DNA of 64,000 nt from a virus, in IMG/VR virus record IMGVR_UViG_3300031963_000013. One strand, written 5' to 3'. Below the pieces are notes generated by a model. That model saw only the letters and a program-made list of their open reading frames with translations, was not told the DNA's origin and searched no databases. Numbering within the stretch: position 1 is the stretch's first letter; the number at the start of each line of letters is the position of its first letter. Positions 4,411-53,934 of the stretch are shown here, piece after piece. Both the position numbers and the translations under genes were made by a program.

Positions 4411-4589
4411 ACAAAGTAGAAGCTTTCGTAGAATTGCAAATGAACGCCAACGCAGAAATAGACGAGCTCGGTGAAGTTTCAGAATACACAGCAAAAAAGC
4501 TTGAAGAAGTTGCAGATTTGCTATCACCAAAAGAAATAGAAGAAGCTATACAGCTATACGATAAAATAACAAAACCTTCCGACAAATGA
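4407..4589 (+). CDS. hypothetical protein
   Basis: ATGA overlaps with both neighbouring genes. Confidence 0.6.
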   Translation: MNKVEAFVELQMNANAEIDELGEVSEYTAKKLEEVADLLSPKEIEEAIQLYDKITKPSDK

Positions 4590-5077
4590 GCTTAAAAAGA
4601 CTAACTTTAGAAGAAGCAAAAATGTACAGGAAACTTCCTCAAGACGACCCAAGAACTATAAAACACGCGGTGGCATTCACGCTAACGCATGTTGAAGGCG
4701 AATCGGGTTGGGAAGAAGTTACCTACTACGGTGAGGGCATGATAGACCCTTCCCACGCTATAGCCAAACCCGAGTACGTCTACGTTCTCGTCAACCAATC
4801 GGTACCGGGTATATGCAAGATAGGCATGACTACCACTTCTGTTGCACAAAGAACAAAGGAGATAAACTCAGCCACAGGAGTTATAACGCCGTGGTACTGC
4901 GTATACAGCTACAGGTGTTTGAACTCGGCTTTACTCGAAAAGGAAGTGCACCACAGACTAGAAAGCATGGGATACCGAGTGAACGATAGGCGAGAGGGAT
5001 TTCGCATCGAGTCTGATAAAGCTGAGCTCATAATCGAAGAGGCAGCCAAATCAATCATGATTCAGGGATCCCCATAG
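4586..5077 (+). CDS. T5orf172/MUG113-type GIY-YIG domain protein
   Basis: YVYVLVN....G.CKIGMTT..V..R..E...ATGV..P, EKEVH, REGF. Confidence 0.8.
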   Translation: MSLKRLTLEEAKMYRKLPQDDPRTIKHAVAFTLTHVEGESGWEEVTYYGEGMIDPSHAIAKPEYVYVLVNQSVPGICKIGMTTTSVAQRTKEINSATGVITPWYCVYSYRCLNSALLEKEVHHRLESMGYRVNDRREGFRIESDKAELIIEEAAKSIMIQGSP

Positions 5078-10010: not shown

Positions 10011-10544
10011 ATGAATAGTAAAATAATCAGCTTTGCAATAGAAGCCCACAACAAAGTAAACCACCTGTATGATGGCAAACCTTATTCCGTCCATTTGTCA
10101 ATGGTTGCACATTATGCAGTAAAGTATATTGATGCAATACCTCAACAATGCTGGGGAACTGTATTAAATGCTGCATGGTTACATGATACTATTGAAGATT
10201 GCAGACTTACTTACAATGATGTAAAAGAAGTTGCAGGGTATGAAGTTGCTGAAATCGTTTACGCTTTAACAAACGATAAGGGTAAAAACAGAAAAGAACG
10301 TGCTGGCGAAAATTATTACAAAGGTATTCGTGAAACAGCTTGGGCAAAGTATGTAAAGTTATGTGATAGGCTTGCTAATGTAAAATATTCAGTTGATACC
10401 AATTCTCGAATGTTGGAAGTTTACAGAAAAGAAAATGCAAGTTTTTTAACTGGTTTAATGTCGGGCAGTTCTGATGCCTTAATTTATAAATACCCGTTGG
10501 AAGAATTAGACACATTGCTTTATGGCGTGTCAAAGGTAGCATGA
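10011..10544 (+). CDS. HD-domain small alarmone hydrolase (RelA/SpoT hydrolase, Mesh1-like)
   Basis: FA..AH, PY..H, AAWLHDTIED, VKLCDRLAN motifs. Confidence 0.85.
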   Translation: MNSKIISFAIEAHNKVNHLYDGKPYSVHLSMVAHYAVKYIDAIPQQCWGTVLNAAWLHDTIEDCRLTYNDVKEVAGYEVAEIVYALTNDKGKNRKERAGENYYKGIRETAWAKYVKLCDRLANVKYSVDTNSRMLEVYRKENASFLTGLMSGSSDALIYKYPLEELDTLLYGVSKVA

Positions 10545-12623: not shown

Positions 12624-13694
12624 ATGGGACTTATGAATAACATAGACAAACAATACCAAGCATTACTTCAAGACATACTTGATAACGGTGTAAAAAAACA
12701 AGACCGTACAGGTACAGGAACGTTAAGTGTATTTGGAAGACAGATACGACACAAAATGAGCGATGGGTTTCCATTACTTACAACTAAAAAGATGTACTTC
12801 AAAGGCATTGTAACTGAGTTACTTTGGTTCCTTAGAGGTGATACAAACATCAAATACCTAGTTGATAACAATTGTCATATTTGGGATGGTGATGCTTATA
12901 AGAACTATTGTAAAAGTTTTGAACCAACAGATAGTCCGTATGATTTTAGAATTAAAGGTTTATTTGGTGGACCTCTTACACAACAGGAGTTTATCAACAA
13001 AATAAAAACAGATGATGAGTTTGCTAAGACGTGGGGTGAGTTAGGTCCAATTTACGGTAAGCAATGGAGACAATGGGAATATCAATATGGGGATGAATAT
13101 AGTGGTGGTCATCATTTACCAACATTAAAAAAACAAATAGACCAAATCCAAAATCTAATCAACGACCTTAAAACAAACCCAGACTCAAGACGATTAATGG
13201 TTAACGCTTGGAACGTAGGTGAATTAGATCAAATGGTACTTCCACCTTGTCATTATGGATTTCAAGTTTATACAAGAGAATTGAATAATCAAGAAAGATA
13301 TCATTTATTCAGAATACAGGATGAAGATATAAATCCTTATAAAACAATAAACGATACACCAACCAGAGCAATATCTTTAATGTGGAATCAACGTTCAGTA
13401 GATACATTCTTGGGCTTACCATTCAACATTGCTTCTTATGGTTTACTACTTGAAATAATTGCTAAAGAAGTTAATATGATTCCAGATGAATTGATTGGTA
13501 ACTTGGGTGATGTACATTTATATAGTAATCACATTGAGCAAGCAAAGGAACAAATTACTAGAACGCCATTTGAATTGCCTATATTGGCCATAATAAATGA
13601 TCCTAAATTAAAATTTGATGAACTTACTTTAGATAATTTTGCATTAATAAAATACCAAGCACACCCAGCAATTAAAGCACCTCTTTCTAATTAA
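12624..13694 (+). CDS. thyA: thymidylate synthase
   Basis: DRTGTGT, ELLWFL, LPPCH, QRSVD..LGLPFNIASY, DVHLY motifs. Confidence 0.97.
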   Translation: MGLMNNIDKQYQALLQDILDNGVKKQDRTGTGTLSVFGRQIRHKMSDGFPLLTTKKMYFKGIVTELLWFLRGDTNIKYLVDNNCHIWDGDAYKNYCKSFEPTDSPYDFRIKGLFGGPLTQQEFINKIKTDDEFAKTWGELGPIYGKQWRQWEYQYGDEYSGGHHLPTLKKQIDQIQNLINDLKTNPDSRRLMVNAWNVGELDQMVLPPCHYGFQVYTRELNNQERYHLFRIQDEDINPYKTINDTPTRAISLMWNQRSVDTFLGLPFNIASYGLLLEIIAKEVNMIPDELIGNLGDVHLYSNHIEQAKEQITRTPFELPILAIINDPKLKFDELTLDNFALIKYQAHPAIKAPLSN

Positions 13695-13946: not shown

Positions 13947-14366
13947 ATGGCAGATAAATTTAACTTACAGGGATACTTAAAGAAGAACGCTTTGTTAAAC
14001 GAGAATCTTGGTGCATCAATGGGAGAAGATCAAGAAAGCCTAAAAGAGGCGACTGATAATGAACTGTCTTCTTATTTAAAGGCTGCTGCTGAAAAATGTT
14101 TTGTCAAAGGGGGGAACGGTCAGAACTTATTAGACTGCTTAAGCGAAGCGGCCGCTTTCATAGGTGCATATATGACTACTAGCGCAAGAATGAGCCCAGA
14201 AGAACCTGGTTTCTATACAGATAAAACAGCTGTGGCGTTTAAGAATCTAGTTAACGCTATGGTTCAAGACGAAATTACAAACAATCATGTAAGTAAATAC
14301 GGAGCCGGTGGTGATATGGATGATGACGGCGATTACGATAATTTCATAAAATCAGTAAACAGATAA
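13947..14366 (+). CDS. putative internal head protein
   Basis: Late-type ATATTTAT motif upstream; N-terminus FNL.G.LK.N.LLNEN shared with next ORF. Confidence 0.6.
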   Translation: MADKFNLQGYLKKNALLNENLGASMGEDQESLKEATDNELSSYLKAAAEKCFVKGGNGQNLLDCLSEAAAFIGAYMTTSARMSPEEPGFYTDKTAVAFKNLVNAMVQDEITNNHVSKYGAGGDMDDDGDYDNFIKSVNR

Positions 14367-14376
14367 TAAATAAAAA

Positions 14377-15045
14377 ATGAAAGACAATTTTAACTTAACC
14401 GGGTTCTTGAAAGGGAACAAATTACTGAACGAAAACATAGGTGGATACGTAGACATTAAACCCGTAAACGAAGAAATGGGTACAGCTATGGAAGATCTTA
14501 AAAAGCCTTCTAAAGTGTACACAGACGATTGGGTACGTTCAGCTATAGAGAGCAAGTTGGGATCTTGGACGTTTGACTACGATTATATGAGCGGAGTTTA
14601 CATGTGGACCCACGACGATATAGATCCTGAAGACCTTGTTGTGTACGCGACTCCGGGTTTTGACGGAGAAGAAGGCATCGCTGGAGAGGTTAATTTGGGA
14701 TTCGGAGATAGAGTGGTAGACCAAGAAGTTTTTGGAGATGCGTCTTACCCCGATTTTGAATCTTACGCGGCAGCTGTGAAGCCCTATTTGGATAAGGTCG
14801 AAGACAAATACAACGACGGCGAATACGCAGAAGATATAGAATCAACGTACAAACGTGGTGTTAGTTTAAAAAGAGAAGAGATCGGTACAGCTATGGAAGA
14901 AGACGATACGGAGGATTTCGGTACTACAGACGATCGAATTATGGGATTGGGCGGAGACAGACTATTGGCTGCAGCTCAGTTTCTTATTGACGATGGTTTC
15001 GAGCTCGAAGATCTTATGGACTTCTTGCGCAACAAACTTGCATAA
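14377..15045 (+). CDS. acidic putative internal head protein
   Basis: Paralogous N-terminus; internal EE.GTAME repeat. Confidence 0.6.
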   Translation: MKDNFNLTGFLKGNKLLNENIGGYVDIKPVNEEMGTAMEDLKKPSKVYTDDWVRSAIESKLGSWTFDYDYMSGVYMWTHDDIDPEDLVVYATPGFDGEEGIAGEVNLGFGDRVVDQEVFGDASYPDFESYAAAVKPYLDKVEDKYNDGEYAEDIESTYKRGVSLKREEIGTAMEEDDTEDFGTTDDRIMGLGGDRLLAAAQFLIDDGFELEDLMDFLRNKLA

Positions 15046-15065: not shown

Positions 15066-15094
15066 AAAAGACCCTATCTTTGGGGTCTTTTTTT
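15066..15094 (+). terminator. intrinsic terminator
   Basis: AAAAGACCC/GGGTCTTTT hairpin plus T run. Confidence 0.8.
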
Positions 15095-15162: not shown

Positions 15163-15927
15163 ATGAGACTACAAACTTCCCCGTACGAAACAAGGCAAGA
15201 AGAGTACAGAGACGATCCGTGGAAAATGTTAATGGTGTGTTTCATGCTCAACCAGACAAGCCACAAACAGGTCGACCAGGTTCGCCACGAGTTCTTTCAA
15301 AGGTATCCAAACGCAGAAGCGTTGTTAGAAGCAGAAGAATCAGAGATAGCGTCGGTGATAAAAACACTGGGCTTCTATAACCGAAGAGCAAAGGCGTGGA
15401 AGCGGTTCAGCAAACAGTGGATAGAAGCAGTAGAAGAATACGGTACTTCGGTTCCCATATCAGTTTTACAAGACATGAAAGGTGTGGGTAGGTACGCTTT
15501 AGATTCGTGGAAAGTGTTTCAATTGTTTCAGTACGACATCGAAGTTGACGATCACGTTCTAAACTGGTACGTCGATTGGGCAAGACAGGAGGTCGAGAGG
15601 TTAAAGAGGGAAAGTTCTCCGTGGAAACCGATGGTTGTGTATTACCTTCACTACAAGGACGATCGTTACTTCATAAACAATTGGAACAAATTGGGAGACT
15701 ACGTCTGCTGCGTCATGGCAAGGACAATGGGGGAGGCGATAGAAAAGACACGGAAGATCGCGTTGAACCAGAAGGGCGCAATGAACATCAAGATCATGGG
15801 AATAAGCAAAGGCAAAGAAGAGTGGGTGAACGAAGAGAGTCCATCGGTTACTAACGAAGATATCTACACTAAACACATAACAGCGTTGTTCGAAAGAATT
15901 AAAATAAAAGCAGCACAACATGGTTAA
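15163..15927 (+). CDS. HhH-GPD DNA glycosylase, MBD4-like, with C-terminal extension
   Basis: DPWKMLMVCFMLNQT, LGFYNRRAK, GVGRYALDSW, DHVLNWY. Confidence 0.85.
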   Translation: MRLQTSPYETRQEEYRDDPWKMLMVCFMLNQTSHKQVDQVRHEFFQRYPNAEALLEAEESEIASVIKTLGFYNRRAKAWKRFSKQWIEAVEEYGTSVPISVLQDMKGVGRYALDSWKVFQLFQYDIEVDDHVLNWYVDWARQEVERLKRESSPWKPMVVYYLHYKDDRYFINNWNKLGDYVCCVMARTMGEAIEKTRKIALNQKGAMNIKIMGISKGKEEWVNEESPSVTNEDIYTKHITALFERIKIKAAQHG

Positions 15928-16141
15928 AGAAGGATACATAGAAATGATTAAAGATAGGCTTCAGTGGTGCATAGACACAGAAAGGTACGAAATGGCGGCA
16001 AGGCTGAGGGATCAAATACGTTTACACAGCACAAGAGAGGGAGAAGACGAAGAGTGGAAACAACAGTACTACTTAAGCTTAGCTAAAAAATACGCGCCTG
16101 AATTTTGCGAATTATTTAATAAAACAAACAAAAATGGATAA
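15920..16141 (+). CDS. UVR (UvrB/C coiled-coil) motif protein
   Basis: ERYEMAARLRDQI. Confidence 0.65.
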   Translation: MVKEGYIEMIKDRLQWCIDTERYEMAARLRDQIRLHSTREGEDEEWKQQYYLSLAKKYAPEFCELFNKTNKNG

Positions 16142-17189
16142 CAATTTCAATTTCACTTACTTCACAGATTACGAAAAAGACAAGTCTGTAAAGATCGGCA
16201 TCTCTGCCCTTGTGGGTAAGATCAGCAGACAGATCTCCTCTCATAAAGCCGGTTGGCCGACTATGATCGCTAATCAACTAAAGCACGCTGGGTATCCAAA
16301 CGTCACAGTTATTCACGATCAGAAAACGGATTGGTCGGAATACGATGTGATACTTTTAGAACACGGTATGGAGTTCAAGGGAACTTTCAATATCTTTGGA
16401 GGCGCCAACGACGAACTGTACGATCAAGTTAAAAGGATATTTGTGCAAGGCGTTAGAATGTACTCGCTTCACGTTGACATGCCGTTGATCGGTGACTTAA
16501 TTAAAGTTCGCCACAGAACGGGCACAGAACAGTTCAAAAGCCTGTTAGAGAAAGCTGACATGGTAAACAACGTGTGTGCTACTTCTATTCCTCGTGTAGA
16601 CTTCATCGAAAAGACAGACAAGTTGGTGTTTGGCGACTCACACTGCTTCAGTACTTACAGACCCGGTTGGATGGTGTGTAGGAACGACGGTATGACAATG
16701 TACGGTTGCTTGAATAGAGGATTGAAGTCTTACGTGTTTCCTTGGGTAAAAGAGCTCATCGTTTACATGGGTAACATAGACGTTCGTCACCATCTGATGA
16801 GACAGCAAGACCCAATCAAATCTATTGACGAAATGATGGCCGCTCTAGAGCAGCAACTGCTTGAACTCAATCTAGATTCTGTTACGTTGACTGAAGTACT
16901 GCCTATTGAGAACGTTTCTAGAAAGATCCCCAAAACTGGTTGGTACAAAAAGATGCCGTACTTCGGAACTTGGGAAGAGCGCTCAGCGTTGGCAAAGTAC
17001 ATAAGCGTAAAGCTCAACGAGATTGCAGAAAGAAACAAGTGGAACGTTTACAAAGTGCCTGCGATCTTCAAAAACGAGAACGCTGAATTGGACTTCAAAG
17101 TTATGGAGAGGCCACAATCTGTACACATCTCCAGGGAATTCCACTACTGGGACTACGAATTAGATCAACAAAACACAAGAATACAATAA
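16134..17189 (+). CDS. SGNH/GDSL-fold-like protein
   Basis: VFGDSH block I, GNIDVR block III, C-terminal SVH. Confidence 0.55.
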   Translation: MDNNFNFTYFTDYEKDKSVKIGISALVGKISRQISSHKAGWPTMIANQLKHAGYPNVTVIHDQKTDWSEYDVILLEHGMEFKGTFNIFGGANDELYDQVKRIFVQGVRMYSLHVDMPLIGDLIKVRHRTGTEQFKSLLEKADMVNNVCATSIPRVDFIEKTDKLVFGDSHCFSTYRPGWMVCRNDGMTMYGCLNRGLKSYVFPWVKELIVYMGNIDVRHHLMRQQDPIKSIDEMMAALEQQLLELNLDSVTLTEVLPIENVSRKIPKTGWYKKMPYFGTWEERSALAKYISVKLNEIAERNKWNVYKVPAIFKNENAELDFKVMERPQSVHISREFHYWDYELDQQNTRIQ

Positions 17190-17192
17190 CAC

Positions 17193-18374
17193 ATGGACAA
17201 AAAAGCAATGAACAACGTCAAGTACCTAAAGATGACCAAGTACTACGACGAATTTTTGAAGTACTTTAGAATGGCCACTGTACAACAGGCCGAGTGCAAT
17301 TTAGGTAAGATCAGACACTGCGACTCAAGCGTAGAGGACGATCTGATGAAGCACGTTGAGCTGTACGATGTGGTCGAAAGAAAATACGCAGGATTCTCCC
17401 AGATTGTCAACGACTGCTTCTACGGTTTCACAGAGGACCATCCGTATTGGGACAAGATGAAGGACGGTATCATGTCAAAGCAGCGCGAAATCATATCTAA
17501 GAACTGGACTGGTAAACGCAATGTGTTTGGAGTGCGAGAGTGGATGTACCTTTTCTTGTTTCACCGTTTAACAGGCTCCGCTATCAACTATTCGATGAAG
17601 CCTTCAGGGTACCACAATACGCTTCTGTTCGATATGCACAAAGCCGACAACATACCGCAAATGGTACAGATCATTCAGCAAGCGATCAGACCGTTTTATA
17701 CGTCTATAGGTTACCAGTTCCCAAGCTTTCCTAAGCCCAAAGGCAGATACAAGCGTGGAGGAGACTACTTCCTTTGCGAATACGTACCGCAGTTGGCCGA
17801 GGACCTTACGAGGTTTTTAGAGCAGGGAGAAAAGAAAGACTTGCGTGAAGTAGGCGACTTCATGTTTAAGTGGAACAAAGACAGGGACCTCAGAGCTTTC
17901 AAATTCCAGTACGCCGCTGTTATCGCTGATATTGCCGATTGGTTCCCTGAGTTTGTGAACAGAGAGAGCCCGTTCTACTACGGCACAAACGCTATCGAAT
18001 GCATCGAGTATCTTGCTACCAAGTCTATCAAGATGCCAAAAGAGGACTTCTTAGACGCAGTAATGATGAAGATATACGAAGACACAGGTAGCTACCCGTA
18101 CAACGCAGAGGACGTTGCGTGCGATAGCATACGTTGGATCGAGAACTACGTTAAGCCTGGTGCAGACTACGATCACTTGGACTTCGACCACGTTTGGAAC
18201 AGTTCGAGCATTAAAGATCACCCTTACGGAAGACAAAAAGCTATGTTAGACCTTGGGTTGGTACCGAGTTTCAATGGTATCACCGAACATCCGTCAGACG
18301 ACAAAGTTATCAAGTCTTTAAATATGACAGAAGAACAATACAAACAACGAGTAAAAGAATACTACGGACTATGA
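17193..18374 (+). CDS. putative amino acid:DNA transferase (aGPT-PPlase-like, HhH fold)
   Basis: FQYAAVIADIAD, YYGTNA and AEDVACDSIRW resemble family motifs. Confidence 0.5.
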   Translation: MDKKAMNNVKYLKMTKYYDEFLKYFRMATVQQAECNLGKIRHCDSSVEDDLMKHVELYDVVERKYAGFSQIVNDCFYGFTEDHPYWDKMKDGIMSKQREIISKNWTGKRNVFGVREWMYLFLFHRLTGSAINYSMKPSGYHNTLLFDMHKADNIPQMVQIIQQAIRPFYTSIGYQFPSFPKPKGRYKRGGDYFLCEYVPQLAEDLTRFLEQGEKKDLREVGDFMFKWNKDRDLRAFKFQYAAVIADIADWFPEFVNRESPFYYGTNAIECIEYLATKSIKMPKEDFLDAVMMKIYEDTGSYPYNAEDVACDSIRWIENYVKPGADYDHLDFDHVWNSSSIKDHPYGRQKAMLDLGLVPSFNGITEHPSDDKVIKSLNMTEEQYKQRVKEYYGL

Positions 18375-18559
18375 GCAATACAGAAACAAAAAAAGACAGA
18401 GTAGAGATCTCTGAACTGGTTGAATTCTATTACCAAGCTGGAGATGATTACCAACTCTGGGATGAAACGGAAAGCGGGCCTTATCCGATAGACCGCATGC
18501 TAACAGCTTTTAAAAACTTTCTAAACCAATACAACCATGGCCAACATAATATACAATAA
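18371..18559 (+). CDS. hypothetical protein
   Basis: Overlaps both neighbours. Confidence 0.55.
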   Translation: MSNTETKKDRVEISELVEFYYQAGDDYQLWDETESGPYPIDRMLTAFKNFLNQYNHGQHNIQ

Positions 18560-19532
18560 CACGTGCGAAGTACCCTTTAAGGGAAAGAAACCGCAAAGAT
18601 CATGGATGAAGGATTGGACCGAAGAGGAACGCATAGACAAGTTCTTCGAGTTCTGTCACAAGTTCGACGACAGACAGGACGATCTACTAAAAAATGAGTA
18701 CCAGATATTCTCCCACCGCCTACACTGGCACGAACACCCGTACTGCGAGTACATGAAAGAGATAGTAAGTAACAAAGCGAGACTGTTCTATACGCTTGTG
18801 TTCTCCTTTACTAACGAACACTGGGGCACATTTATGAAGCTTTATGACGGGGGTATAGAAGCAACAAGAGAACACTTCAAAGAGAACAGACACGCTCGCA
18901 ACGACCTGTTTCAGATATATTACCCTAAGGGTACAAACGTAAAAGAGTGGGTGTTGGAAGGACCCAAGCAAGCAGCTGAAGATCTGTATCACGTGTTGGA
19001 CGAAGTAGAAAGGGGAGTAAGACCCAAGTTCACGATGATGGGCTTTGCTAAACTGTTAGAGTCGTATTTCAAAGAACACCAGAAGTTCAGAAGCCCGCTT
19101 TACCCCTGTAAGAACACGGCCAGATATGTAGCGATGTCTTACCCGCACTTGGTCGATCCAGAGTCGATACTATTTGGAGGTACTGGCCACTTCGACGGAC
19201 TTCACCAGATATTCGATGGTCAGAACTTAAACGGTAAAGTTAAGTACAGCGTAAACTCAGCGGGAGAATTTATACCAGAAAACAAACAGGCGCACGAGTG
19301 GTTGAGACAGATGAAAGTGCTGGTTGAACACCCTAAGAACCCTATGGTGTCACAAAAGTACTTGAATGTAGAAGATAAAACTTGCTTTTTTTGGAAGCAC
19401 ATAGCAATATCTCACGGAGAAAAGCGTCCTACTAAAAATATTCCTTACACTTGGATATTCAATGATAAGTTCAATTTAGGTAATAGACCCGAATTCTTAG
19501 AAGGCATTAAAGATAGGTGTCTAATGTATTAA
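18537..19532 (+). CDS. second putative aGPT-PPlase-like protein
   Basis: GGTGHFDGLHQIF and NVEDKTCFFWKH motifs. Confidence 0.45.
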   Translation: MANIIYNNTCEVPFKGKKPQRSWMKDWTEEERIDKFFEFCHKFDDRQDDLLKNEYQIFSHRLHWHEHPYCEYMKEIVSNKARLFYTLVFSFTNEHWGTFMKLYDGGIEATREHFKENRHARNDLFQIYYPKGTNVKEWVLEGPKQAAEDLYHVLDEVERGVRPKFTMMGFAKLLESYFKEHQKFRSPLYPCKNTARYVAMSYPHLVDPESILFGGTGHFDGLHQIFDGQNLNGKVKYSVNSAGEFIPENKQAHEWLRQMKVLVEHPKNPMVSQKYLNVEDKTCFFWKHIAISHGEKRPTKNIPYTWIFNDKFNLGNRPEFLEGIKDRCLMY

Positions 19533-19555
19533 TTGAATATTTATTAAAAACTCTT

Positions 19556-20107
19556 ATGATAAAGTTAACTAACTTAGTAAACGAGGCTTATGGATCTACA
19601 AAGTTAAGCGCTGATATAGAAAACTGGGCAAATAGTAAAGGATTAAACTTTAAAAAGCTGTCTGCAAAAAAATCCCCTGGTAATTACGGAGCGAGCATAT
19701 CGAATACATTTTTACAAGTCGGTGACAAATATGTATTAGTGAGATACGAAACAGTACCAGGAGCACCAAGATTGAATCAGTTACGGTTTTTCATTTTAGA
19801 TAAACCAGATCTATCAGCTAAAGTATTAGCGAGCGCTGATTATGTTGAAGATTTTGGATACGTACAATCTGCGTTAGAAAAAGCTATATCTGCTAGTGGT
19901 AAAGAAGCCGAAAATTGGAACGTAAAATCAAAGCTTGACAAATTCATAAGAGACTTATCAAAAGATAAAAAATACAATAAGTTCTCCGACGCACAAGCTG
20001 GTGATATGGCACAGTCTATATTAGACGACAACGAAGGCCTCGAAAGAGCAATTCAACAAATATATAAAGTGAGTGATGCCGCAGGATGGTTAGCGGATAG
20101 ACTATAG
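19556..20107 (+). CDS. putative head-cargo protein
   Basis: Late motif at 19537; MIKLTNLVNE leader; probable start ATG 19556. Confidence 0.6.
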   Translation: MIKLTNLVNEAYGSTKLSADIENWANSKGLNFKKLSAKKSPGNYGASISNTFLQVGDKYVLVRYETVPGAPRLNQLRFFILDKPDLSAKVLASADYVEDFGYVQSALEKAISASGKEAENWNVKSKLDKFIRDLSKDKKYNKFSDAQAGDMAQSILDDNEGLERAIQQIYKVSDAAGWLADRL

Positions 20108-20180
20108 TCACCAAAAAATTTAAGTATTGGAAACCAATCAGTTATAACCAATTGATAACCAATGCGCCCAAGACACACCA

Positions 20181-20204
20181 GGAGCTCACCAGAGCTCCTT
20201 TTTT
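20181..20204 (+). terminator. hairpin terminator, identical copy at 22591-22614
   Basis: GGAGCTC-ACCA-GAGCTCC-TTTTTT. Confidence 0.75.
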
Positions 20205-21357: not shown

Positions 21358-21957
21358 ATGGACTTAAACAAACTGAAGGGACACGTTCCCGACACTGTTA
21401 TCGCACAGTTACCCGACACAATCGCAAAATTCGAACTAAACACTCCCCTTCGCTTGGCGCACTTCTTAGCCCAAGCGGGCCACGAGAGCGGTGGCTTCAA
21501 AGCAGTAAACGAGAATCTAAACTACGGCGCAAAAGGCCTTTTGGGAATATTCAAGAAGTATTTCCCCACGCCTGAGAAGGCAGCTTTGTACGAGCGCAAG
21601 CCCGAAAAGATCGCTAACTTGGTGTACGGTGGTAGAATGGGTAACGGACCAGAAGCGTCCGGTGAGGGTTGGAAATTTCGCGGCCGTGGATACATTCAAT
21701 TAACCGGTAAAGACAACTACAAGGCGTTCGACGCTGTTGTAGCAGAATCTATTGTAGATAACCCGGATTTGGTAGCCACTAAATACCCGTTGTTATCAGC
21801 TGCTTGGTTCTTTCACAAAAACGGACTACACAAGATAGCCGATCAGGGCGCTACCGACGCTGTCGTAACTTCTGTTACAAAGCGCGTTAACGGTGGAACC
21901 ATAGGACTACCCGATCGCATAAAGCACTTCAAAGAGTATTACAATCTTTTAAAATAG
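21358..21957 (+). CDS. GH19 (chitinase-like) endolysin
   Basis: AHFLAQAGHESG, ENLNY, FRGRGYIQLTGKDNY, VNGG..GL.DR. Confidence 0.93.
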   Translation: MDLNKLKGHVPDTVIAQLPDTIAKFELNTPLRLAHFLAQAGHESGGFKAVNENLNYGAKGLLGIFKKYFPTPEKAALYERKPEKIANLVYGGRMGNGPEASGEGWKFRGRGYIQLTGKDNYKAFDAVVAESIVDNPDLVATKYPLLSAAWFFHKNGLHKIADQGATDAVVTSVTKRVNGGTIGLPDRIKHFKEYYNLLK

Positions 21958-21961
21958 ACCG

Positions 21962-22567
21962 ATGAATAGGCTTCAAAAGTTTTCGATAGGCCTTGTTTTT
22001 TTAGCTCTGTGTTCTTTCCAGCAAAAAAATTCACTCGGTAAAAGCGCGTTAAGAGACTCTGTATTGGTAAAATCCGATATATTCACGATAATGTACTCTG
22101 AGACGTTCGAACAACCGTTGTGGATAAGATATACGGTTAAGTGCCCAAAGGGGAACGCTTCCAGGTCTGGTATGAACTTTTACACGAACGACACTGTGCA
22201 CACTTCGAACGATCTAGATTACGCAAACAACGTGTACGATAAGGGACACATGGCACCCGCTGCCGATTTCAACTGTAACACAGACATGTTGAGGAAGACT
22301 TTTAGTTACATCAACTGCGCGCTACAGGACCAGTATTTGAATAGGGGCGTTTGGAGATTTTTGGAAGCTTACGAGAGGGAGTTGGCTGTGAACGGAGAAG
22401 TTAACGTTCTCATCACAGTGAATTTCGGATCTACAAGGTTGGCTTCCGGAGCAATAGTACCGCTGTCTTTCAAAAAACAAATATCTTACCAAGGTAAAAC
22501 AGAGTGCTATTTATTCCTTAACGAAAAACCTAGGAGCTCCAATTTTTTGGACTATAAGTGTAAGTAG
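21962..22567 (+). CDS. exported DNA/RNA non-specific endonuclease (His-Me finger, NucA/EndoG family)
   Basis: YDKGHMAPAAD, N...Q...LNRG.W..LE; N-terminal hydrophobic signal ending LALC. Confidence 0.88.
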   Translation: MNRLQKFSIGLVFLALCSFQQKNSLGKSALRDSVLVKSDIFTIMYSETFEQPLWIRYTVKCPKGNASRSGMNFYTNDTVHTSNDLDYANNVYDKGHMAPAADFNCNTDMLRKTFSYINCALQDQYLNRGVWRFLEAYERELAVNGEVNVLITVNFGSTRLASGAIVPLSFKKQISYQGKTECYLFLNEKPRSSNFLDYKCK

Positions 22568-22635: not shown

Positions 22636-23121
22636 TTAATAAATACTGTCTGATGGTGCGCTCTGGTGCAGATCTGGATCTGGTTTAACGTCCCTTCTGT
22701 AGTATCTTCCTGCTATCGTATCGTTGTAAGAGTCTACGTGAAGCACTTTTAATTTGTGTTGCCACTGTTCTTCGTAGTAAGTGCACTGCTTTTTGTTGAA
22801 ACAGAACTCTAGTATTTCCCTGTGAAAGTGTTGTAGACCCATGAGTTTAATGTCCTCCTGCAGGTTCTTGTTGCTACCGTTGTAGTCGGACCAGTTGCTT
22901 TCTTTCCTCTCTTTCTTTTTCTTTGGAATGCGCCCTGGTTTGTCCCAGTTCTCTGTTTCTTTTTTTGTAAGCTTCTTTGTGAGTGTATTGAACAGCGTTT
23001 TCTTTCCTACGTAGATCTTACCGTTTGTGGTATTGGTGATCATGTATACAAAACCTACGCAGCCTTCGGGGAATTGGGAGAGACTCTCTATCTCTATACC
23101 CTCGTATAACCATTTTTGCAT
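22636..23121 (-). CDS. GIY-YIG endonuclease
   Basis: GFVYMITN..NGKIYVGKK, ESNW..Y.GS, F.REIL. Confidence 0.85.
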   Translation of the reverse strand: MQKWLYEGIEIESLSQFPEGCVGFVYMITNTTNGKIYVGKKTLFNTLTKKLTKKETENWDKPGRIPKKKKERKESNWSDYNGSNKNLQEDIKLMGLQHFHREILEFCFNKKQCTYYEEQWQHKLKVLHVDSYNDTIAGRYYRRDVKPDPDLHQSAPSDSIY

Positions 23122-53460: not shown

Positions 53461-53934
53461 ATGAACATATTCTATTTACACGAAGATCCAATCTTGGCAG
53501 CAAGAGATCTGTGCGATCAACACATTCTAAAAATGGGTATAGAATCTGCGCAAATGCTGTCAACTGCACACTGGGCCACAGGCGGCCAAGCTCCATACAA
53601 AAAAGCTCACCTAAATCACCCATCGACAAAGTGGGTTAGAGAATCAATACAACACTATAGGTGGTTGGTATACCACGCTGAAGAGATATTTAACATATAC
53701 ACAAAGCATTACGGAAGAGTACACAAAACCCAAGGAATATTAGAGTGGCTAAAACAAAACGAGCCAAAAATACCAGACAACGGTTTTTATGCACCGCCCC
53801 AATGTATGCCTGATGAATACAAGCAAGAGAACGCTGTAGACGCTTATAGAACGTTTTACGCCCTTGATAAAATAGTCGGTAAACAATTAACTTACAACAG
53901 GGTTAAAGCCAAACCAGAATGGCTATATAGCTAA
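53461..53934 (+). CDS. pyrimidine-dimer DNA glycosylase family protein
   Basis: MNIFYL...D.H..KM..ESAQMLST, HP.TKW, PQCMPD.YK, AYR..Y. Confidence 0.85.
   Translation: MNIFYLHEDPILAARDLCDQHILKMGIESAQMLSTAHWATGGQAPYKKAHLNHPSTKWVRESIQHYRWLVYHAEEIFNIYTKHYGRVHKTQGILEWLKQNEPKIPDNGFYAPPQCMPDEYKQENAVDAYRTFYALDKIVGKQLTYNRVKAKPEWLYS

Follow-up and report, generated by a model that had tools for sequence, protein, structure and literature searches.

Can a phage carry out amino acid:DNA transferase (AADT) chemistry on its genome by a route that bypasses a DNA kinase? To our knowledge, every characterised AADT pathway starts at 5-hydroxymethyl-2'-deoxyuridine (5-hmdU) and requires a DNA-base kinase, and every characterised hypermodification of 5-hydroxymethylcytosine (5hmC) is a glycosylation. 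The question is raised by an operon in the IMG/VR virus record IMGVR_UViG_3300031963_000013, analysed here as a 64-kb stretch of DNA (the window), in which genes for an MBD4-like DNA glycosylase and for a two-domain protein (ORF4) stand upstream of two genes, ORF5 and ORF7, whose products are predicted to have an AADT fold. With slightly better than even confidence, we read this operon as a cassette for the post-replicative hypermodification of DNA pyrimidines, of the AADT (aGPT-Pplase) type, in which no P-loop 5-hmdU DNA kinase (5-HMUDK) takes part and which is probably directed at 5hmC; an undescribed base modification is thus probably present in the DNA of this phage. The reading draws on the combination of fold, catalytic motif, a conserved gene trio, gene fusions and hydroxymethylase neighbours. 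No published description of this cassette was found in the literature searched.

The window belongs to a large myovirus of the T4-like type; among its genes are those for a gp20-type portal, a T4-type terminase, baseplate wedge proteins, an SbcCD-like nuclease, a primase and 4 tRNAs. The operon (15163-20107, + strand) contains seven open reading frames (ORFs), is bracketed by terminator-like hairpins and is translationally coupled. A first-pass annotation, made from the letters of the sequence, had described the genes as tightly coupled, and this holds: the ORFs lie where it had placed them, and the junctions are overlaps (8, 8, 4, 23 and 16 nt) or a single 3-nt gap. The features of the operon are as follows.

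15066-15091 (+): terminator-like hairpin (11-bp stem followed by a T run), end of the preceding unit and 5' boundary of the operon.
15163-15927 (+): MBD4-like HhH-GPD DNA glycosylase, 254 aa (Pfam HhH-GPD and PDB MBD4 matches).
15920-16141 (+): protein with a UvrB/UvrC (UVR) motif, 73 aa (Pfam UVR).
16134-17189 (+): ORF4, two-domain protein, 351 aa (phrog_13881, phrog_17781 and an hhalign match to T4 β-glucosyltransferase, BGT).
17193-18374 (+): ORF5, divergent protein of predicted AADT/aGPT-Pplase fold, 393 aa (predicted structure, Glu306-x3-Cys310).
18371-18559 (+): 62-aa ORF separating ORF5 and ORF7 (ORF call; no homologs in related loci).
18537-19532 (+): ORF7, second protein of predicted AADT fold, 331 aa (predicted structure, Glu279-x3-Cys283).
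19517-20107 (+): 196-aa ORF with a GTG start, the final gene of the operon, lying past the end that the first-pass annotation had assigned (ORF call).
20180-20199 (+): terminator-like hairpin (8-bp GC-rich stem followed by a T run), 3' boundary of the operon.

No Pfam, PHROG or NCBIfam model recognises ORF5 or ORF7, and neither blastn with the operon nor tblastn with these two proteins gave a match among 50,697 cultured-phage records. Their metagenomic homologs (934 for ORF5 and 438 for ORF7) are unannotated. The motifs that had been picked out by eye in the two proteins are present and are invariant in the aligned homologs: F238..A241....D246, F261-Y-Y-G-T-N-A267 and E306-D-V-A-C310 in ORF5 (28 homologs), and F213-G-G-T-G-H-F-D-G-L222 and E279-D-K-T-C283 in ORF7 (30 homologs). 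AlphaFold models built from the homolog alignments are confident and all-helical (pLDDT 86.6 and pTM 0.87 for ORF5; 86.0 and 0.86 for ORF7). When these models were compared with BFVD, the top match was in both cases a protein named 'Amino acid:DNA transferase domain-containing' (TM 0.89 and 59% identity for ORF5; TM 0.88 and 51% identity for ORF7). Each model also matches the ortholog of the other with a probability of 1.0, the ORF5 ortholog being the second match of ORF7, and both match the SP10 5-hmdU DNA kinase, the 'HMUDK helical domain' proteins of PhiW-14, phiRSL1 and Lucky3, and 'Pplase1' proteins; the probabilities of the cross-ortholog, HMUDK-helical and Pplase1 matches range from 0.85 to 1.0.

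A second library, 48,161 PDB representatives, gave PUGT (8z2m) as the best match of both models (Z 8.6, rmsd 4.3 over 208 residues for ORF5; Z 8.9, rmsd 4.2 over 224 residues for ORF7), Z values below 9 being middling for helical proteins. Below PUGT in both lists stand QNG1, AGOG, Ogg, AlkA and Nth, which are members of the helix-hairpin-helix (HhH) glycosylase superfamily. A Foldseek search of ORF5 against PDB returned nothing at E <0.001, with MjOgg and PUGT at a probability of 0.4-0.7. Since two independent models and two libraries concur, we regard the predicted AADT/HhH fold of ORF5 and ORF7 as a solid assignment. The first-pass annotation had tentatively called the two genes divergent AADT relatives and had named comparison with aGPT-Pplase structures as the check; that comparison led to the HhH-glycosylase/AADT fold and not to an unrelated one.

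PUGT is gp46 of phage PaMx11, a 5-phosphomethyl-dU (5-PmdU) glycinyltransferase (8z2m/8z2n; PMC11472151). Its Cys247 is proposed to form a covalent adduct with the pyrimidine ring, Glu243 is among the DNA-contacting residues and the E243A mutant is impaired in DNA binding (PMC11472151); for clade-2 aGPT-Pplases an attack at C6 has been stated (PMC8989533). The PUGT sequence E243-T-I-L-C247 shows, likewise near the C-terminus, the same Glu-x3-Cys pattern as E306/C310 of ORF5 and E279/C283 of ORF7, an equivalence at the level of the motif, inside structurally aligned ranges, and not a superposition of residues. Given PUGT Glu243/Cys247 and the invariance of the pattern, the 'ED..C' that the first-pass annotation had noticed in both proteins would be the AADT catalytic motif. 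Alignment by eye further suggests a comparable A-D-x-x-D helix and a comparable position of the aromatic 'wedge'. ORF5 and ORF7 differ from PUGT in that they are 40-100 residues longer, are only 6-10% identical to it and have no similarity to it at the level of hidden Markov models (HMMs).

An hhalign comparison of the ORF5 and ORF7 families (0.4%) is not significant, with both named motifs paired in the same order, and BLASTP gives no significant link between the two proteins. The two proteins do not match Pfam ADDT (PF18724) up to E 5, while the PaMx11 gp46 control is recovered at E 1.6e-27, and hhalign of the two families against PaMx11 gp46 and against the helical parts of two fusion proteins described below (ORF233c and P0255) is in no case significant; the family alignments used are of low diversity (Neff ~1.7). 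HMM searches of PDB sequences with the ORF5, ORF7 and ORF4 family alignments found nothing, and a predicted complex of ORF5 with ORF4 scored 0.00, which gives no verdict. We conclude that ORF5 and ORF7 are distant paralogs of each other and of known AADTs, beyond the reach of current Pfam models.

A survey of 81 IMG/VR loci with ORF5 homologs found an ORF7 homolog beside the ORF5 homolog in 69 loci, the glycosylase in 44, ORF4 in 32, a PALP-type pyridoxal phosphate (PLP) enzyme (phrog_7093) in 27, a gene of the thymidylate synthase (TS) family in 14 and a dCMP deaminase in 13. The arrangement recurs in related loci and is thus not due to chance. ORF4 is present somewhere in the records of all five relatives inspected, and the typical operon of relatives that carry a gene 42 homolog consists of a gp42-like gene, dCMP deaminase, ORF5, ORF7 and ORF4 (for example L064). 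Of the two kinds of gene for which the first-pass annotation had recommended that neighbourhoods be surveyed, the PLP enzyme was thus found in a third of the loci (27/81), and a kinase was found between ORF5 and ORF7 homologs in two loci alone (L001 and L002).

Two other gene families accompany the cassette in its relatives. The PLP enzyme is of fold type II (phrog_7093 'threonine dehydratase', E 1e-51), accompanies ORF4 in 27 loci (L054:5594-6502 and 26 others; also L090:570-1418) and is absent from the 64-kb window. Upstream of the operon, the window encodes two tandem, paralogous acidic proteins that belong to no family (13947-14366 and 14377-15045; 139 and 222 aa), 34% identical over their first 90 residues; homologs of the 222-aa protein lie ~2 kb upstream of the cassette in 27/81 related loci.

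The arrangement can be compared with the thymidine hypermodification clusters of phages M6, ViI, PaMx11, PhiW-14 and SP10, which comprise a dUMP hydroxymethylase, a 5-hmdU DNA kinase, aGPT-Pplase/AADT enzymes and tailoring enzymes (Lee et al. 2018, 2021). Both have a paralogous pair of HhH-fold AADT-type proteins with a catalytic Cys; relatives of the window likewise couple them to a TS-family hydroxymethylase, dCMP deaminase, dUTPase and PLP enzyme; and, by analogy, the base would likewise be substituted at its C5 methylene after replication. Unlike those clusters, neither the window nor four near-complete relatives have a 5-HMUDK, the constant partner is an enzyme with a BGT-like N-domain and a GDSH motif, the hydroxymethylases of the relatives are of the dCMP (gp42) type, the MBD4-like glycosylase lies inside the operon, and neither Pfam ADDT nor Pfam HMUDK_hel covers the transferase-like proteins.

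The lack of a kinase was probed in several ways. Among the window ORFs of at least 150 aa there is no kinase, hydroxymethylase or PLP enzyme, in agreement with the first-pass annotation, which had seen neither of the first two. In four relatives that are 91-100% complete, searches with Pfam HMUDK_HMUD1 and with the L001 kinase gave no match, nor did searches with Pfam ADDT; in both cases the PaMx11 control was detected. Pfam HMUDK_hel also had no match in the four near-complete relatives. The P-loop kinase that stands between the ORF5 and ORF7 homologs of L001 and L002 was considered as the missing 5-HMUDK and rejected as a general component, as it occurs in 2/82 loci and is absent from the four near-complete relatives; it matches none of the HMUDK Pfam models and resembles PaMx11 gp49 only at E 0.006.

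The interval between the ORF5 and ORF7 homologs also holds, in 29 related loci (L003-L027 and others, for example L004:1470-2027), a 185-aa gene that belongs to no family. The window has the unrelated 62-aa ORF at this position, which looks like a site of mobile insertions. The 185-aa product was considered as a small kinase and rejected, since it lacks both a Walker A motif and a family assignment and is absent from the window.

Which base would be modified can be approached through the TS-family genes. The window itself encodes one such gene.

12624-13694 (+): canonical thymidylate synthase ThyA, 356 aa, a context gene and not a hydroxymethylase (Pfam PF00303, E 6.8e-100).

This protein passes the cut-offs of two NCBIfam equivalogs (NF002496, 346 bits, cut-off 325; TIGR03284, 332 bits, cut-off 108), so that its first description as canonical stands. 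It retains the PFN (Asn177-type) motif, with Asn at the uracil-specificity position in a TS-family alignment, matches the PaMx11 dUMP hydroxymethylase only locally (E 4e-5) and is unusually long owing to two insertions relative to bacterial ThyA. The 14 TS-family genes beside ORF5 homologs are of another kind. In each of the 14, the residue that corresponds to Asp179 of T4 gp42 is Asp, and 12 of them are 50-60% identical to T4 gp42; thymidylate synthases and the PaMx11 dUMP hydroxymethylase have Asn there. Asp or Asn at this site sets the specificity for cytosine or uracil. Relatives that lack a 5-HMUDK and carry dCMP-type hydroxymethylases thus lend weight, by analogy, to the first-pass suggestion of a different substrate or chemistry. 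A search of the relatives for TET/JBP enzymes gave no match and is uninformative, as the control genomes likewise gave none.

The closest full-length relative that has the layout of the window is G001 (76% identity in ORF5, 77% in ORF4 and 70% in ThyA). Some 100 kb from its cassette, G001 carries a module of dUTPase, dCMP deaminase and a hydroxymethylase of a second type. No region of the window is syntenic with this module, so that an equivalent may lie outside the window, and the hydroxymethylase of the phage is probably encoded there, as in G001. The apparent lack of a hydroxymethylase in another relative, G002, is explained by its contig, which stops inside the dUTPase gene of a module of the G001 type.

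The alternative that survives best is classical thymidine hypermodification. Here the phage would have 5-hmdU DNA, the kinase and a dUMP hydroxymethylase would be encoded beyond the 64-kb window, 5-phosphomethyl-dU would be the substrate of ORF5 and ORF7, as it is in M6, ViI and PaMx11, and ORF4 would be a tailoring enzyme. We consider this unlikely, although several of the observations that speak for it also weigh against a kinase-free, 5hmC-directed cassette. The window amounts to about one third of a genome of ~175 kb, judged from relatives of 164-180 kb; it has no visible hydroxymethylase, and the identity of the base rests on the relatives. The second-type hydroxymethylase of G001 sits with dUTPase and dCMP deaminase, the usual set for dUMP supply, has an ND motif and is as near to the PaMx11 dUMP hydroxymethylase (29-33% identity) as to gp42 (25-29%). 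A dCMP deaminase adjoining a hydroxymethylase could moreover make hm-dUMP from hm-dCMP. L001 has both ORF4 and the P-loop kinase between its ORF5 and ORF7 homologs, and a paralogous pair of aGPT-Pplases is typical of thymidine clusters (PMC8989533). To these must be added, as points against our reading, the middling Z scores and the motif-level nature of the likeness to PUGT, the failure of both Pfam ADDT and HMUDK_hel (PF18723) to recognise ORF5 and ORF7, the canonical ThyA that the window retains, and the merely putative activity, donor and SGNH assignment of ORF4.

What makes thymidine the less probable target is that the hydroxymethylases adjoining the cassette all have Asp and not Asn at the base-specificity position, with 12 of the 14 being gp42 orthologs. 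The four near-complete relatives match neither HMUDK nor the L001 type of kinase, the L001 kinase itself is confined to the two loci and lies outside the HMUDK models, and the TS of the window is a true ThyA.

A cassette without a kinase would need another means of activating the base, and ORF4 is the candidate. It matches phrog_13881 (E 1.5e-52) and phrog_17781 (E 4.1e-50) and belongs to a family of 911 representatives at 50% clustering, 342 of them with E <1e-30. Its N-domain is homologous to that of T4 BGT: with an alignment of 131 ORF4 sequences, hhalign pairs ORF4 19-112 with BGT 1-97 at 82.6% (E 9.6e-6), the same comparison with 19 sequences giving 5.9%. Both proteins are 351 aa long. 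The C-half of ORF4, unlike its N-domain, has no similarity to the UDP-glucose-binding domain of BGT (Pfam PF09198 family; hhalign 0.2%), and for this reason we do not class ORF4 as a member of the BGT family. This half instead carries GDSH (167-170), T188..G191, G213-N-I-D216 (GNID-RHH) and S329-V-H331, in the order of SGNH blocks I, II, III and V, with R218, H219/H220, R223, R263, R283, E259 and E325 invariant and Asn214 of block III not invariant. A few family members weakly match Pfam Lipase_GDSL (E 0.003-0.04), and hhalign against E. coli TesA aligned block I alone, at 1-2%. The pattern makes the label 'SGNH-like' plausible for the C-domain, which had been the first description of this protein; the BGT-like N-domain comes in addition to it.

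Gene fusions place ORF4 in the same context. In the metagenomic protein P0255 (981 aa) an FkbM methyltransferase, an HMUDK_hel domain (43 bits, above the cut-off) and an ORF4 domain are fused in that order. Bona fide 5-hmdU DNA kinases, for example SP10 gp186, have the helical domain fused to a P-loop kinase. By analogy, the ORF4 domain of the fusions would sit where the kinase would be.

Homologs of ORF4 are also found in cultured phages. They occur in 43 phage records, nearly all of them T4-like Aeromonas phages of the 44RR2.8t, 31 and 25 groups. In ORF233c of Aeromonas phage 31 (795 aa, phrog_17781), an ORF4-like domain precedes a helical one that weakly matches HMUDK_hel and carries the two motifs of ORF5 and ORF7, D/E-x-x-x-F...G-P-G and E-x3-C. 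The ORF4-like domains of ORF233c (31/44RR2.8t) and of phage 25 ORF225c have 27-34% identity to ORF4; the ORF4-like and helical domains are fused in 31 and 44RR, whereas ORF4, ORF5 and ORF7 are separate genes in the window. Phage 31 has gene 42, and 44RR, 31 and 25 have been reported to encode genes 42, 56, alc, denA and denB and no glucosyltransferase, another modification of Hm-dCMP being left open (Petrov et al. 2010, PMC2993671).

The neighbours of the Aeromonas loci are different from those in the window, with no MBD4-like gene nearby. In phage 31 (L087:4396-8376) a sodium:solute symporter gene (SSF, E 7e-53) directly precedes the fusion of ORF4-like and AADT-like domains, and in phage 25 (L096:1764-5035) an ORF4-like gene that stands alone comes after genes for a UDP-galactopyranose mutase (E 5e-54) and for a 358-aa protein. 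The symporter and the mutase may hint at donor molecules.

The homology with BGT raises the alternative that ORF4 is a BGT-like DNA glycosyltransferase that adds a sugar to 5hmC, in which case the AADT-fold pair would be DNA-binding or base-flipping helpers, or would catalyse an unrelated reaction, and no substitution of the amino acid type would take place. Besides the N-domain itself, a match of one ORF4 family member to Pfam T4-Gluco-transf (E 0.01), the mutase gene ahead of the phage 25 homolog and the occurrence of ORF4 homologs in gene 42 phages without known glucosyltransferases all fit this idea. As in the T-even phages, which glucosylate hmC, the background here is T4-like and the relatives have a gp42-type hydroxymethylase; ORF4, however, always accompanies AADT-fold enzymes, which T-even phages lack. 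Given that its C-half shows a GDSH/SGNH-like pattern in place of any UDP-binding similarity, that the Glu-x3-Cys invariant among the aligned ORF5 and ORF7 homologs argues for catalysis, and that the window has no sugar-nucleotide genes, we give glycosylation by ORF4 little credence.

The product of the first gene of the operon matches Pfam HhH-GPD (PF00730) at 43.6 bits, above the cut-off of 26.2, and among solved structures is closest to the MBD4 domain (PDB 4ew4, E 2.4e-20 over ~140 residues). In the PDB alignment, GVGRYALDSWKVF of the phage glycosylase pairs with GIGKYGNDSYRIF of MBD4, so that the Asp of GxGxYxxDS, which follows the HhH-Gly loop and which we take to be the MBD4 catalytic residue, is retained, and the MBD4-like identity first assigned to this gene can be kept. 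The phage protein shares the HhH-GPD fold and this Asp with human and mouse MBD4 (PDB 4ew4, 4e9e, 1ngn) but lacks the methyl-CpG-binding domain; it consists of a glycosylase domain of ~150 aa and a C-terminal extension of ~100 aa that is conserved in relatives, and, unlike MBD4, is encoded within a phage modification operon. A full-length homolog with 59% identity is encoded in L001. A repair or anti-host nuclease module, in which three HhH-fold glycosylases excise damaged or host-type bases and phage DNA is left unmodified, is highly improbable, for although the first gene clearly encodes an MBD4-like glycosylase and AGOG, Ogg, AlkA and Nth rank just under PUGT in the structural lists, the best structural and BFVD matches of ORF5 and ORF7 are transferases and HMUDK helical domains and not glycosylases, the two proteins have the AADT Cys motif and neither the HhH-GPD Asp/Lys arrangement nor a Pfam HhH-GPD match, and relatives couple the cassette to hydroxymethylase, deaminase, dUTPase and PLP-enzyme genes.

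Returning to a kinase-free hypermodification cassette, the following course of events can be proposed. The phage would incorporate a 5-hydroxymethylpyrimidine, most likely 5hmC, made by the hydroxymethylase encoded outside the window. ORF4 would derivatise the hydroxymethyl oxygen into a leaving group, in replacement of phosphorylation. ORF5 and ORF7 would flip the base out, their Cys thiolate would add to C6 and the leaving group would be expelled, after which the exocyclic methylene would be attacked by a nucleophile bearing an amine or hydroxyl group, such as an amino acid. Of the two enzymes, each would have its own sequence context or its own nucleophile. The MBD4-like glycosylase would remove U, T or 5hmU mispaired with G that arise by deamination of modified cytosines. 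We infer three elements of this scheme: the 5hmC substrate, the supply of the leaving group by ORF4 and the repair of deamination mismatches by the glycosylase. In its most specific form, which we put forward tentatively and with less than even confidence, a widespread set of T4-like phages from aquatic habitats, probably including the cultured Aeromonas phages 31, 44RR2.8t and 25, would turn 5hmC, and not thymine, into a new amine- or amino acid-bearing base without a kinase, with ORF4 activating the hydroxymethyl group (for example by esterification), two Cys-dependent AADT-fold enzymes carrying out the substitution and the MBD4-like protein acting as a dedicated guard against deamination of the modified cytosines.

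The remaining genes of the operon and several others in the window complete its description. The 73-aa protein matches Pfam UVR barely above the cut-off (E 1.6e-4, 21.8 bits, cut-off 21.5) and is specific to the window, without homologs in the 81 related loci; the 196-aa ORF belongs to none of the Pfam or PHROG families and likewise lacks homologs in these loci. A second DNA glycosylase of the window is denV-like and specific for pyrimidine dimers (53461-53934; Pfam Pyr_excise, E 4.9e-6). Two successive genes at 21358-22567 encode a protein with a GH19-like lysozyme/chitinase domain (199 aa) and then a DNA/RNA non-specific endonuclease (201 aa, E 3e-21), the N-terminus of which is hydrophobic and resembles a signal sequence. 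Two genes are mobile nuclease genes, one for a SegE-type GIY-YIG homing endonuclease (22636-23121, - strand; E 1.5e-27) and one for a T5orf172/MUG113 domain protein (4586-5077, + strand; E 4.5e-15). An HD-domain protein at 10011-10544 has weak similarity to the SpoT/RelA hydrolase domain.

In the paper on phage TET enzymes, the action of a kinase and an aGPT-Pplase on 5hmC was merely speculated upon (PMC8256090), and the metavirome survey of hypermodification clusters was anchored on the kinase (PMC8989533) and would therefore have missed clusters that have none. If our reading is true, the cassette would represent a new class of cytosine modification and a new route for the activation of hydroxymethylated bases, and ORF5 and ORF7, which have ~400-900 homologs at 90% clustering, would each found a new clade of DNA-base transferases. 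New base chemistries bear on escape from restriction and CRISPR, on sequencing artefacts in viromes and on enzymatic tools for DNA labelling. The reading is directly testable because the Aeromonas phages of the 44RR2.8t, 31 and 25 groups are cultured, and, if true, it would offer an answer to the question, posed in 2010, of the fate of hmC in gene 42 Aeromonas phages that have no glucosyltransferases.

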